DNA of 64,000 nt from Eledone cirrhosa. Taxonomy: Eukaryota. The DNA lies in the NCBI GenBank assembly GCA_964016885.1, contig OZ024741.1, forward strand, positions 338,334,001 to 338,398,000, read 5' to 3'. Shown here one piece after another: positions 12,301 to 58,600 of the stretch. Position numbers and translations under genes: made by a program. Numbering within the stretch: the stretch's first letter is position 1; each line of letters begins with the position of its first letter. The notes under the pieces were generated by a model. It did not search any database. It was not told the DNA's origin and was given only the letters and a program-made list of their open reading frames with translations.

Positions 12301-15300
12301 CGGCTGCTGACCACAATGCTTGGTGCCACACCATAATATAAAATTTTAAAAGTATGAAAAATACAATAAATAAATAAATAAATAAATAAATGTATATATA
12401 TAAATATATAAACAAATAAATAAGTTGGACTAGCGATATCTAGAAAAATTATTTTATTGTATTCAATAATAGTAAGTGTCAGCCTTTTGAGCCAGTAATG
12501 TAACTTCATACCATATAGACAAACAATCATTTATTTAATGAAAGTTCTCATATAAAACCATATAGATAGCATATAAGTACCATACAGATACCAAATAAAT
12601 AGTTACTGTACATTTCTATAAGCATAGAATTGTAGATAATAAAATGACATCGTTTTGGTATACAAACACCACTTTTGAATAAACATTTATAATACGGAAT
12701 AGACAAGGGCCCCATAAATGACGGTGAATGCAATACGTCTAGGAGAGCATTTACTTTGAAAGAAATAAGACTGCACGGGGTGGACATAGACTCTATAAGC
12801 CATAATGAAAACAACCTCTCTACGAGAGGTCACTCTTGATAAAAACTAATACAGGATAGAAAGGACCCTTAACTCCAGTCAAAAACCTCTCTAGTAGTGC
12901 TGATGGCACAATAAAATGCATCCACTATATGCTATAAAGTGATGAGTGATAGAAAGGGCATCCATCAAGAAAAGAAACTGCCAAAAATTATCATCATCAT
13001 CATCATCATGAAAAGTAGATGAAATGATGATGGGTCATGTTAATATTTTCATATATATGTAGATGCTCATATATTTACAAAATAATAATGTAAGATACTA
13101 ATATTTTTTATGGAAAGGAAATGAAACGGCTTCTGAAAATGAAAACTGGATTGAGAACTTTGCTCAGTCTAAATGTTAACTTCTAGTTTACAGTTCAAAT
13201 ATCAGTTGCTCTCTGGTAGGTTTGTGGTATTGCCTGCAGTAGTGGAGACTTCCGGCATTCTTGCACCCAGGACCACATCCCTGCTCACTGCTATCAGAGC
13301 AGAGTTGGTTGCCCACAGGTGTGAGCCCATGAGGTGGAGAGGCTGTTCCAGTATATCTCTCTTGCTGTCCTCCGGGGGGAGGGGAAGCAATGTATTCTCC
13401 ATCCTCTTAGTGAGCCAGGACCAAGAGGCAGAGAGTAAGTCAGTTAGAGATGAAGGATACTCGTTTGGACGTCACACATATACACACATACACAAAATAG
13501 ATAAAAAGAAACAATATTTGTAATGTTACAAAACTTTGTAAACTTACAAAGCCCATAAGCTACTGAAGTTTACAGTGTTCACAATATCAACAAAGAAATA
13601 TATTGATTAACTTACCACATTCGTTGACGATTCAATGTTTTTTATTCCAGTAATTGTTCTTACTTTTAGTAAAAAATTGACCGTGTTGCCATTAAGGCTG
13701 AAACTGAATGTTGCATCTTCTGTACAATTATTGTTGCTCATTAAAGCTGTTATTCTTGTATTTCCAAATGGCATTTGGAAATCCACAGACAGACCAAACC
13801 ATTCACCAAGTTCATTATTAGAAAAAAAAGGAACTCCTACAGTGGTGGTGCCATTGAAAATGGCAAAATCGTTATTGAAAGAAATAGCTTCGGCATTGAG
13901 GTAAACCGTTTCAGGGACTGTTTTTAAGTTTCCATTCAGAGGAGCTGTGAAGCTGAAACAGGTTGTAGCTGTAATGCAGGAAAAAGAATGTAAACAGATT
14001 TGCTGAATGTCTCATGAAATAAAAACGAAAAACAAAATGCAGGGTGAGTCATAAGTAACCAGGAAATCAATGCATTTTTTTTATTGCAAGGTTCACAGAT
14101 AACTTTTTGAACATCCACATATTTGTGTGGGATCAGCCATGATTGTATTGTTTTTACTTTTGTTTGATGTATTTATAATTTTGTAATTTACGACCAGAAT
14201 ATTAGTAAATATTATCATTTGAAATATAAATGTTGTACTGCCAGATTAGTTATAACTCACCCTGTATAATCAAGTGAAAATAATTAGAAAAAAATAATAA
14301 CATTGTCGTAAATGATTTCATAGAAACAAAGCAAAAATGTATTTGTTGAAATGTGGACTGCTTGCTTGGTGATAAGAATATGGAGAGGGAGGACATGAGG
14401 CCAACTGCTGTCGGTAGGAGTGGGTGAGCAGAAGTGAGTTGAATTAATGCCACTGACTTCTGCCACATCCACTTGGGGTTTACCTGAGTCATTTCATTGC
14501 TACATTATAGCATTCATACACACACATAGAAGTTGAGGTTATTTGGTTTATTTCATACCACAGCACAACTAACATTAAAATTCAACCTGCTACAGGATTG
14601 AATTTAGTCTAGTAAACCCATGAAAGGGCTATCTCAGCATGGTTACAAACTAAAGATTGAAACTAGTAAAAATAAAATAACAATAATTACGTTTGATATT
14701 CATATTAGAATCAATACATGTGCATAAAGTCATATTAAATTCCAGTCCTGCACCGCAGCTTCTTTCAACCCAATCCGATCCGACTTTCTGGAGATATTTT
14801 CCTTTCTCACCGGAAAGCTTATACAGAGATGAACATGCTGAAGTGAGATAAAAATAGAAAAGATGAAATTTATTTGATATTAAATTGCATCAGTGAATTT
14901 GTTAAAATTTATGAAATTACTAAAATTATCCAACAAAATATAGGTTACCAAAGTTTCACAGATTTTTTTTTTTTTACAAAATACTTTTGATAGAAAGATG
15001 GAGGTACTGGATATCATGTACAGGGTATGATTTCCGAAGGAAAAATCTACAATACTGGGTACACACCAAAAGTAAAGTGCCTACATTATATGCATCTGTA
15101 AACTCTAACTTTGCATGGTATAAGCAATAAACAGGATAAGCAATAAATTGATGGAGTCAATAGAATGTCAGATAGAATGTTTTGTAGTATTCATTTTCAC
15201 TTTCTGCTCTTGAAATCCCACCAAGGTCAACTTTGCCTTTCATCCATTCAACGTTGATAAAAAAAAGTACCAATCAAGTACTGGGGTCGATTCTTCCTCT

Positions 15301-55600: not shown

Positions 55601-58600
55601 AATGTATGTAATATCAACCACCCCCAGTGAACCCTCGGCTGCTGACCACAATGCTTGGTGCCACACCATAATATAAAATTTTAAAAGTATGAAAAATACA
55701 ATAAATAAATAAATAAATAAATAAATGTATATATATAAATATATAAACAAATAAATAAGTTGGACTAGCGATATCTAGAAAAACTATTTTATTGTATTCA
55801 ATAATAGTAAGTGTCAGCCTTTTGAGCCAGTAATGTAACTTCATACCATATAGACAAACAATCATTTATTTAATGAAAGTTCTCATATAAAACCATATAG
55901 ATAGCATATAAATACCATACAGATACCAAATAAATAGTTACTGTACATTTCTATAAGCATAGAATTGTAGATAATAAAATGACATCGTTTTGGTATACAA
56001 ACACCACTTTTGAATAAACATTTATAATACGGAATAGACAAGGGCCCCATAAATGACGGTGAATGCAATACGTCTAGGAGAGCATTTACTTTGAATGAAA
56101 TAAGACTGCACGGGGTGGACATAGACTCTATAAGCCATAATGAAAACAACCTCTCTACGAGAGGTCACTCTTGATAAAAACTAATACAGGATAGAAAGGA
56201 CCCTTAACTCCAGTCAAAAACCTCTCTAGTAGTGCTGATGGCACAATAAAATGCATCCACTATATGCTATAAAGTGATGAGTGATAGAAAGGGCATCCAT
56301 CAAGAAAAGAAACTGCCAAAAATTATCATCATCATCATCATCATGAAAAGTAGATGAAATGATGATGGGTCATGTTAATATTTTCATATATATGTAGATG
56401 CTCATATATTTACAAAATAATAATGTAAGATACTAATATTTTTTATGGAAAGGAAATGAAACGGCTTCTGAAAATGAAAACTGGATTGAGAACTTTGCTC
56501 AGTCTAAATGTTAACTTCTAGTTTACAGTTCAAATATCAGTTGCTCTCTGGTAGGTTTGTGGTATTGCCTGCAGTAGTGGAGACTTCCGGCATTCTTGCA
56601 CCCAGGACCACATCCCTGCTCACTGCTATCAGAGCAGAGTTGGTTGCCCACAGGTGTGAGCCCATGAGGTGGAGAGGCTGTTCCAGTATATCTCTCTTGC
56701 TGTCCTCCGGGGGGAGGGGAAGCAATGTATTCTCCATCCTCTTAGTGAGCCAGGACCAAGAAGCAGAGAGTAAGTCAGTTAGAGATGAAGGATACTCGTT
56801 TGGACGTCACACATATACACACATACACAAAATAGATAAAAAGAAACAATATTTGTAATGTTACAAAACTTTGTAAACTTACAAAGCCCATAAGCTACTG
56901 AAGTTTACAGTGTTCACAATATCAACAAAGAAATATATTGATTAACTTACCACATTCGTTGACGATTCAATGTTTTTTATTCCAGTAATTGTTCTTACTT
57001 TTAGTAAAAAATTGACCGTGTTGCCATTAAGGCTGAAACTGAATGTTGCATCTTCTGTACAATTATTGTTGCTCATTAAAGCTGTTATTCCTGTATTTCC
57101 AAATGGCATTTGGAAATCCACAGACAGACCAAACCATTCACCAAGTTCATTATTAGAAAAAAAAGGAACTCCTACAGTGGTGGTGCCATTGAAAATGGCA
57201 AAATCGTTATTGAAAGAAATAGCTTCGGCATTGAGGTAAACCGTTTCAGGGACTGTTTCTAAGTTTCCATTCAGAGGAGCTGTGAAGCTGAAACAGGTTG
57301 TAGCTGTAATGCAGGAAAAAGAATGTAAACAGATTTGCTGAATGTCTCATGAAATAAAAACGAAAAACAAAATGCAGGGTGAGTCATAAGTAACCAGGAA
57401 ATCAATGCATTTTTTTTATTGCAAGGTTCACAGATAACTTTTTGAACATCCACATATTTGTGTGGGATCAGCCATGATTGTATTGTTTTTACTTTTGTTT
57501 GATGTATTTATAATTTTGTAATTTACGACCAGAATATTAGTAAATATTATCATTTGAAATATAAATGTTGTACTGCCAGATTAGTTATAACTCACCCTGT
57601 ATAATCAAGTGAAAATAATTAGAAAAAAATAATAACATTGTCGTAAATGATTTCATAGAAACAAAGCAAAAATGTATTTGTTGAAATGTGGACTGCTTGC
57701 TTGGTGATAAGAATATGGAGAGGGAGGACATGAGGCCAACTGCTGTCGGTAGGAGTGGGTGAGCAGAAGTGAGTTGAATTAATGCCACTGACTTCTGCCA
57801 CATCCACTTGGGGTTTACCTGAGTCATTTCATTGCTACATTATAGCATTCATACACACACATAGAAGTTGAGGTTATTTGGTTTATTTCATACCACAGCA
57901 CAACTAACATTAAAATTCAACCTGCTACAGGATTGAATTTAGTCTAGTAAACCCATGAAAGGGCTATCTCAGCATGGTTACAAACTAAAGATTGAAACTA
58001 GTAAAAATAAAATAACAATAATTACGTCTGATATTCACATTAGACTCAATACATGTGCATAAAGTCATATTAAATTCCAGTCCTGCACCGCAGCTTTTTT
58101 CAACCCAATCCGATCCGACTTTCTGGAGATATTTTCCTTTCTCACCGGAAAGCTGATACAGAGATGAACATGCTGAAGTGAGATAAAAATAGAAAAGATG
58201 AAATTTATTTGATATTAAATTGCATCAGTGAATTTGTTAAAATTTATGAAATTACTAAAATTATCCAACAAAATATAGGTTACCAAAGTTTCACAGATTT
58301 TTTTTTTTTTACAAAATACTTTTGATAGAAAGATGGAGGTACTGGATATCATGTACAGGGTATGATTTCCGAAGGAAAAATCTACAATACTGGGTACACA
58401 CCAAAAGTAAAGTGCCTACATTATATGCATCTGTAAACTCTAACTTTGCATGGTATAAGCAATAAACAGGATAAGCAATAAATTGATGGAGTCAATAGAA
58501 TGTCAGATAGAATGTTTTGTAGTATTCATTTTCACTTTCTGCTCTTGAAATCCCACCAAGGTCAACTTTGCCTTTCATCCATTCAACGTTGATAAAAAAA

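Follow-up and report, generated by a model that had tools for sequence, protein, structure and literature searches.

LamG3/Pif-like proteins, a group related to the shell proteins of molluscs, carry a signal peptide, three chitin-binding type-2 modules and one laminin-G3 domain and have no vWA domain; their genes are described as strongly expressed in the epithelia of argonauts, and shell-less octopods have kept them for a reason stated as unknown (bioRxiv 10.1101/2021.07.10.451900; PMC9635652). Here we describe a gene whose sequence gives it the same architecture, located in a stretch of 64,000 nucleotides (nt) of Eledone cirrhosa (contig OZ024741.1, positions 338,334,001 to 338,398,000; hereafter the window), and present in four close copies, A, B, C and D. 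At the 20 coding sites that vary among these copies, 19 changes are non-synonymous and one is synonymous. The best explanation, and in our view a probable one, is diversifying selection together with exchange among four young copies, acting, on the best reading, most strongly on the degenerate third chitin-binding module; that selection was at work in some form, a history of balanced alleles included, can be put forward with greater confidence. The evolutionary pattern as such is already known, and what is new is that a shell-matrix family shows it, in an animal that is likely shell-less. The accessible part of the LamG3/Pif-like literature does not describe a young four-copy array with an amino acid excess, which is a feature of this locus.

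Amino acid changes among the four copies

The gene lies on the minus strand and has 8 exons with GT-AG introns, encoding a product of 380 residues. In copy A its exons are the following:

28051..28132, minus strand: exon 1, start codon plus predicted signal peptide; the same in every copy
19492..19671, minus strand: exon 2, CBM14 module 1 (Pfam CBM_14, E 1.6e-8, above the cut-off); four non-synonymous sites
17856..18029, minus strand: exon 3, CBM14 module 2 (Pfam CBM_14, E 4e-6, above the cut-off); one non-synonymous site
14691..14837, minus strand: exon 4, degenerate CBM14 module 3 (Pfam, E 0.02, below the cut-off); nine variable sites, all non-synonymous
13616..13968, minus strand: exon 5, first part of the laminin-G-like domain; four non-synonymous sites and the sole synonymous site
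12030..12126, minus strand: exon 6, laminin-G-like domain; no variation
10675..10754, minus strand: exon 7, laminin-G-like domain; no variation
9306..9335, minus strand: exon 8, last nine codons and stop; R373H in copy B

Exon 8, which lies outside the coverage of the run contigs described below, was placed by splice signals and by alignment to the C-terminus of a homologue. The other copies come from searches of the assembly with exon 4 DNA, exon 2 DNA and exon-5 protein; the sequence analysed extends 60 kb beyond the left end of the window and 140 kb beyond its right end. All four are arranged head to tail on the same contig (C2), with frames and splice sites intact in every copy:

52638-52667, 54011-54090, 55365-55461, 56951-57303, 58026-58172, 61191-61364 and 62609-62788, minus strand: copy B, exons 8 to 2 (assembly search and exon extraction); its exon 1 lies 7.2 kb past the right end of the window
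G000:C2:338430522-338449246, right of the window: copy C (assembly search)
G000:C2:338475299-338490059, right of the window: copy D, the 5'-most copy (assembly search)

The 20 variable coding sites fall in exons 2 (four), 3 (one), 4 (nine), 5 (five) and 8 (one). Conditioned on the observed types of change, a count of one synonymous site or fewer among 20 has a probability of 0.026, or 0.021 once a further variant, K163R, is added. As a neutral yardstick, we used the non-coding sequence of the same copies with gaps and simple repeats masked, where introns 2-7 vary at 19 of 7,434 columns, the 3' flank at 46 of 8,136 and intron 1, in copies A, B and C only, at 7 of 7,356. A further 36 sites, in the region of the intron-1 gap of copy D, were judged misaligned and dropped, which reduced 111 variable sites in 20,027 columns to 75, the set used for kappa, the window scan and the run tests. 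Against this yardstick, the non-synonymous rate is raised 8.9-fold relative to introns 2-7 (exact 95% interval, here and below, 4.5-17.8) and 4.0-fold relative to the 3' flank (2.2-7.0), and for exon 4 the ratios reach 32.8 (13-76) and 14.8 (6.4-31), respectively. The ratio of non-synonymous to synonymous rates is 6.8 (1.1-283), and synonymous density is about that of the introns (ratio 1.3; 0-8.2). Within exon 4, 9 of 108 non-synonymous sites vary, against none of the 140 positions made up of its synonymous sites and 100 flanking nt (P 5e-4); non-coding sequence holds at most four variable sites in any stretch of 147 nt. Reducing exon 4 to four mutational events still leaves P at 6e-4 to 0.01, and the excess persists when A/G changes are removed. 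Outside exon 4, the 10 remaining non-synonymous sites are themselves in excess (P 1e-4 against introns 2-7, 0.015 against the 3' flank). By these counting tests on four copies, which are not a codeml analysis, the non-synonymous rate thus lies above the neutral rate, and since relaxed constraint cannot exceed neutrality, the data call for positive selection or for a source of change aimed at exons.

The preliminary description of the window had compared copies A and B alone, and exact alignment with exon extraction returned the same eight changes that it listed: K152Q, R171K, D188E, M191V and K194R in exon 4, K210E and R266G in exon 5, and R373H in exon 8. As it stated, the 1,061 shared coding nt (1,143 minus the 82 nt of exon 1, the copy B counterpart of which is outside the window) contain no synonymous change, the two copies do not differ in exons 2, 3, 6 and 7, five of the eight changes fall in exon 4 (14691-14837; 58026-58172), lysine or arginine (K/R) is involved in six and a basic residue is lost in four. 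It had also seen few changes in the adjacent intron, and we count five substitutions in 2,811 unmasked nt of intron 3. Because about 74-78% of random changes are expected to be non-synonymous, the 8:0 ratio is not significant alone (P 0.10-0.14). The real signal between A and B is instead the contrast of exon and intron, with changes at 5 of 147 positions in exon 4 and 14 of 7,434 in introns 2-7 (Fisher P 2e-5), so that intron divergence is not as high as that of exon 4. The proposal that diversifying selection acts on the third module gained strength from copies C and D as far as selection is concerned, but the 10 non-synonymous sites elsewhere mean that selection would not be confined to that module.

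Charge is altered by 11 of the 19 (31% expected, P 0.014), and 11 of the 19 involve K/R (20% expected, P 3e-4). Between any two copies there are 8-14 coding changes and a difference of up to 9 charge units, the rest of the protein being the same; the predicted net charges of the mature protein are -2 (A), -7 (B), -10 (C) and -11 (D). Related proteins of O. vulgaris and O. sinensis carry K152, K157, K159, Q162, K163, K171 and D188, and the acidic module 3 of copy D therefore looks derived. Sites 159, 162, 163 and 171 lie in the central hairpin of module 3, as judged from strands transferred from a structural model.

Exchange among the copies and layout of the array

The 13 informative sites show all three two-against-two patterns, two of them within exon 4, and the pattern switches 7 times in 12 steps. 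Long identical runs stand out for the pairs B-D (permutation P <2e-4) and A-C (8e-4) and not for the other four of the six pairs. Private variants of A make up 24 of 46 in the 3' flank, and those of D 9 of 10 in the 5' part. These sequence patterns support the view that variants have been shuffled among the four copies by unequal crossing-over or conversion, two mechanisms that are not separated here, and fit the earlier picture of an otherwise homogenised array. The accompanying suggestion that exon 4 had been converted by an outside paralogue or a cDNA was not borne out: searches of the assembly with exon 4 and exon 2 DNA and exon 5 protein gave the four array copies as the only close matches, with no outside donor or retrocopy among them. 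Besides the array, there are two short weak DNA matches on C4 and C8 (56-68 nt, 79-84%), and other loci of the family are 22-29% identical in the laminin-G exon. At least three of these are older paralogues (L035, L036 and L038, at G000:C2 283.09, 338.09 and 283.18 Mb), of which L036, separated from the array by about 250 kb, includes a module-3 exon as well, 44-51% identical to those of the array.

The tandem copies are very young. In a self-comparison, window positions 1-20,900 recur at 43,100-64,000 with about 98% identity, the differences being mostly in microsatellite length, and the repeat unit measures about 44-45 kb. Native 3' flank is retained by A and native 5' flank by D, with 2.7 kb of the latter also kept by A, B and C; the assembly has no N gap over 264 kb. 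Because one and the same junction occurs three times and most private flank variants belong to the terminal copies, the array would go back to one duplication followed by unequal exchange, which would have yielded the inner two copies, and by short conversions. Other features of the unit are the following:

30832-30840, no strand: repeat-unit junction; 9 bases common to both sides, the identical junction being found three times
20683-23943 and 24195-26312, plus strand, antisense to the gene: two LINE-like (long interspersed nuclear element) reverse-transcriptase frames in intron 1, of 1,087 and 706 codons stop to stop

The intron-1 frames, which from their motifs we take to be of the LINE type, are present in A, B and C and absent from D. 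The longer one is open for 1,075-1,089 codons across the copies, and related copies nearby are 95-97% identical, which suggests that this family has been active recently. Just inside the unit junction, 31897-35106 and 35160-36600 hold GC-richer, mobile-element-like sequence and inverted AT-rich repeats that were duplicated with the unit. Copy D alone has a 1.5-kb insertion in intron 7 (about G000:C2:338476200-338477700); a perfect inverted repeat of 191 nt lies close to its ends, and the insertion may be a small DNA transposon. About 52.7 kb to the left of the window, on the strand opposite to the array, an exon with a CBM14-like frame (L026:7236-7430, plus strand; tblastn to module 1, E 1e-6) belongs to a neighbouring chitin-binding gene.

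Variants and splicing in run contigs

Four of seven sequencing runs (X1-X4) were compared as contigs over 13030-15700, and the restriction-site-associated DNA (RAD-seq) runs X5-X7 were left out; such contigs drop rare variants, and their depth reflects neither copy number nor RNA level. X1-X3 are DNA-like, come from one sample and may be the assembly's own source. X4, with a second sample code, behaves as RNA, with exon depths of tens of thousands and an intron depth of about 8. Its contigs show the splicing of exons 3, 4 and 5: a joint 13968>14691 skips intron 4 (722 nt), and the sequence of a contig that ends loosely at 14837 matches the end of exon 3. The last three variable sites of exon 4 are therefore exonic, and a splice donor placed earlier inside exon 4, which would have made them intronic, is ruled out by that joint.

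Seven exon-4 variants (14693, 14703, 14710, 14762, 14790, 14797 and 14819) occur in X4 and in at least one DNA-like run, whereas 14805, 14820 and three exon-5 sites are not among the run variants listed. Over 14206-14819, the contigs of X3 are of the A type and those of X1 and X2 of the B/D type. At 14693, 14703 and 14710, DNA-like contigs carry the A type as well as the B/D type, and these exon-4 differences, seen in the preliminary description, are therefore not consensus errors. K163R (14786), a tenth non-synonymous variant of exon 4, was seen in X4 and X1 and in none of the four assembled copies. D-type contigs of X4 are about ten times deeper than those of the other type; this is only a hint that copy D, which has native DNA upstream and no LINE in intron 1, gives the main transcript, because contigs cannot measure RNA level.

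Predicted protein and Octopus relatives

The 380-residue frame is wholly assigned to a leader, three modules and a laminin-G part. As judged by eye and by alignment, the N-terminus is hydrophobic and lines up with those of the Octopus relatives, consistent with a signal peptide. A Pfam search of exon 5 gave no match, and its Atlas features serve as a lead only; the laminin-G assignment comes from the O. bimaculoides homologue, whose Atlas model (residues 215-399) aligns to Laminin_G_3 clusters, and was transferred by alignment. The AlphaFold model of this homologue is poor overall (mean pLDDT 44), module 3 being its only confident part (pLDDT 71-93), and this part aligns to CBM14-type folds with middling Z scores (rmsd 1.4 over 39 residues, Z 4.5; rmsd 2.0 over 46, Z 4.7). 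Foldseek gave nothing at E 0.001 and a sequence search of the PDB nothing useful. The terminal aromatic residue of module 1 sits where the CBM14 of chitotriosidase has its chitin-binding tryptophan. Modules 2 and 3 are without it, which may leave module 3 free for another role. Three N-glycosylation sequons are retained across the copies. All four share, without any difference, a TATA-like element (28208-28218, minus strand) that precedes the start codon by about 80 nt and an AATAAA (9210-9220, minus strand) about 90 nt past the stop.

By eye, the laminin-G termini resemble conserved LG motifs of Pif/BMSP, and in the wider family it is common for CBM14-like modules to score weakly (PMC11291548). 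Pif/BMSP proper, however, has at least one vWA domain and a low-complexity insert in the LG domain, neither of which is found in this frame. The putative LamG3/Pif-like assignment is one of architecture, and the gene may be either the orthologue of the published clade members Aargo013232 and Ocbimv22010162m or another paralogue.

A phmmer search of 1.84 billion representatives with exon 5 gave six matches, two of which lead to uncharacterised Octopus proteins. The best database matches are O. bimaculoides XP_052828695.1, O. vulgaris CAI9733052.1 and O. sinensis XP_029645353.2. These relatives are collinear with copy A over all modules, with conserved cysteines and 34-38% identity, and the best matches of the O. 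bimaculoides protein in this genome are the four copies. CAI9733052.1 (P0003) is named 3-ketoacyl-CoA thiolase in its source, a name that looks wrong because its sequence consists of CBM14 modules and a laminin-G-like domain. Among the other matches, P0004 is a partial family member and P0007 matches only weakly and distantly, while P0005 and P0006 were rejected as relatives, as they look spurious (repeats, Sushi). A word-based homologue search with exon 5 found nothing, and searches with the O. bimaculoides protein and with the alignment returned only two already known clusters, those of the Octopus relatives. In the searched literature, with subscription journals and bioRxiv supplements outside its scope, we found no published account of the array, its Octopus relatives or their accessions.

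Alternative explanations

Several observations weigh against diversifying selection. Only four sequences from one assembly enter the counts, the direct comparison of non-synonymous with synonymous changes gives modest significance (P about 0.02-0.03; the interval of the ratio starts at 1.1), and the strong P values presuppose that introns and flanks are a fair neutral yardstick. The exon 4, K/R and charge tests were picked after data inspection, and the clustering of coding changes has a P of 0.015 once any 147-nt window is allowed. Several changes are conservative (K/R, D/E), and the sparing of cysteines by all 19 is not significant (P 0.16). In its favour, the Octopus relatives look fast-evolving as well: O. 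bimaculoides and O. vulgaris, about 34 million years apart, are 55% identical, and O. vulgaris and O. sinensis, which split about 2.5 million years ago and have mitogenomes differing by 3.2%, are 90% identical, with 24 differences in 298 residues (dates and mitogenomes from PMC10700109). These, however, are protein identities of putative orthologues, and in the second pair module 3 varies least (96% identity, against 89% in module 1 and in LamG).

Among the rivals, the one that survives best supposes that the variants were alleles of one locus under balancing selection, captured by duplication and exchange (fixed heterozygosity), such that selection predates the copies. The mosaic sharing of variants fits this scenario, as does K163R, present in run contigs and absent from the assembled copies, and the non-coding divergence between copies (0-0.5%) is below the heterozygosity of 1.22% given for O. 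vulgaris in the accessible text of PMC10700109. Old balanced alleles should nevertheless drag linked neutral variation along, and exon 4 shows none at its 39.5 synonymous sites, the 708 unmasked nt of intron 4 are invariant, and in intron 3 the first variant is met at a distance of 809 nt; we consider this history unlikely.

Relaxed constraint after duplication, combined with chance and a few clustered mutation events, is slightly less probable still. The counts are small, the A-B ratio is not significant by itself, sites 188, 191 and 194 always co-occur, and four D-specific changes lie within 30 nt, all of which suits this explanation. But relaxation lifts the non-synonymous rate to neutrality at most, and the observed rate is 4-9 times higher; moreover, all four frames and their splice sites are intact, synonymous sites are not raised, and even the four-event count rejects neutrality.

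A third alternative is change templated by RNA, either because edited or mis-copied spliced mRNA was reverse-transcribed onto the exons or because genomic A-to-G changes were favoured at A-to-I recoding sites. The excess is confined to exons, and a long reverse-transcriptase-like frame lies in intron 1. On the coding strand, A/G accounts for 11 of 13 non-synonymous transitions (58% expected, P 0.045), or 12 of 14 with K163R (P 0.03), and the introns show no such bias (7 A/G, 6 C/T). Recoding by editing typically yields changes such as K>E, K>R, R>G, M>V, N>D and Q>R. In coleoids, edited adenines are more often replaced by guanine (PMC7703385). On the other hand, four of the nine exon-4 changes are transversions, themselves still in excess (P 9e-5 to 2e-3), and no A/G change is synonymous, although 24% of the possible ones would be (P 0.04-0.05). 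Polarity, by majority or outgroup, is mixed (about six A>G, four G>A and two unpolarised), and the coding-strand A>G variants of X4 in exons 4-5, among those listed, all occur in a DNA-like run too, in contigs that drop rare variants. In view of these points, and as the exon DNA searches of the assembly revealed no retrocopy, editing is at most a contributor, and RNA-templated change as the full explanation is improbable. Even less credible is the specific scenario in which edited mRNA was reverse-transcribed into germline exons and the recoding variants (K>E, K>R, R>G, N>D) were then sorted by selection among the copies; if true, germline write-back and selection would have turned a former shell-matrix protein into a diversified, chitin-anchored recognition molecule.

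Finally, an assembly artefact (consensus errors or two haplotypes placed end to end) can practically be discounted: X1-X3 come from one sample, maybe the assembly's source, contig depth gives no copy number, and B and C could be allelic, but the seven exon-4 variants recur both in DNA-like contigs and in X4, an RNA-like run that bears a second sample code, the sequence has no gap, errors would not spare introns and synonymous sites, and the amino acid excess stands even if two copies are allelic.

Proposed history and comparison with known systems

We therefore return to diversifying selection with exchange among young copies, for which a history in three steps can be proposed. First, one duplication via the 9-base microhomology would have produced two copies, and unequal exchange the inner two. 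Second, substitutions that mostly involve K/R and often change charge would have been fixed or retained faster than neutral change, with selection favouring different surface residues among copies while unequal crossing-over or gene conversion shuffled and homogenised the remainder. Third, modules 1 and 2 may tether the protein to a chitin-lined surface, such that module 3 and the laminin-G domain face a changing partner, e.g., microbes, parasites or prey-derived proteases. This third step is the weakest; even given selection, we hold it only tentatively. A defensive or recognition role of the copies is thus possible, and the earlier suggestion of a recognition gene rather than a matrix gene is reasonable and plausible, for a protein whose architecture is that of a shell-matrix family. 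That an amplified array diverges in amino acids and charge speaks against a passive relic and in favour of an arms race at a chitin surface. Nature has, moreover, supplied four variants with which the ligand and its binding surface could be sought experimentally, and the locus offers a clean, very young molluscan case in which selection likely opposes homogenisation.

Tandem copies homogenised except at amino acid-changing sites are likewise found in ATP1A1 of Leptodactylus; there, the accessible text describes two stable, trans-specific paralogues and a known agent, in contrast to the four very young mosaic copies seen here, which show no fixed two-type split (bioRxiv 10.1101/2020.08.04.234435). 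The EHEP of Aplysia kurodai, a molluscan digestive protein with three peritrophin-A domains that counters a dietary chemical defence, is the top but weak Foldseek match (E 0.07), in keeping with a shared small fold and no more, and, unlike the protein described here, has no laminin-G domain in the accessible description (PMC10619976). The closest model for a way of working is that of the protochordate VCBPs, secreted proteins in which, according to the accessible text, a chitin-binding domain tethers the molecule to host chitin and a second domain meets bacteria (PMC4757023). VCBPs are polymorphic, as are the variants of the array, but they use immunoglobulin V domains where the present protein has three CBM14 modules and a laminin-G fold, the latter seen in its homologue. 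By analogy, it is tempting to speculate that the array protein may work like a chitin-tethered VCBP without being one.

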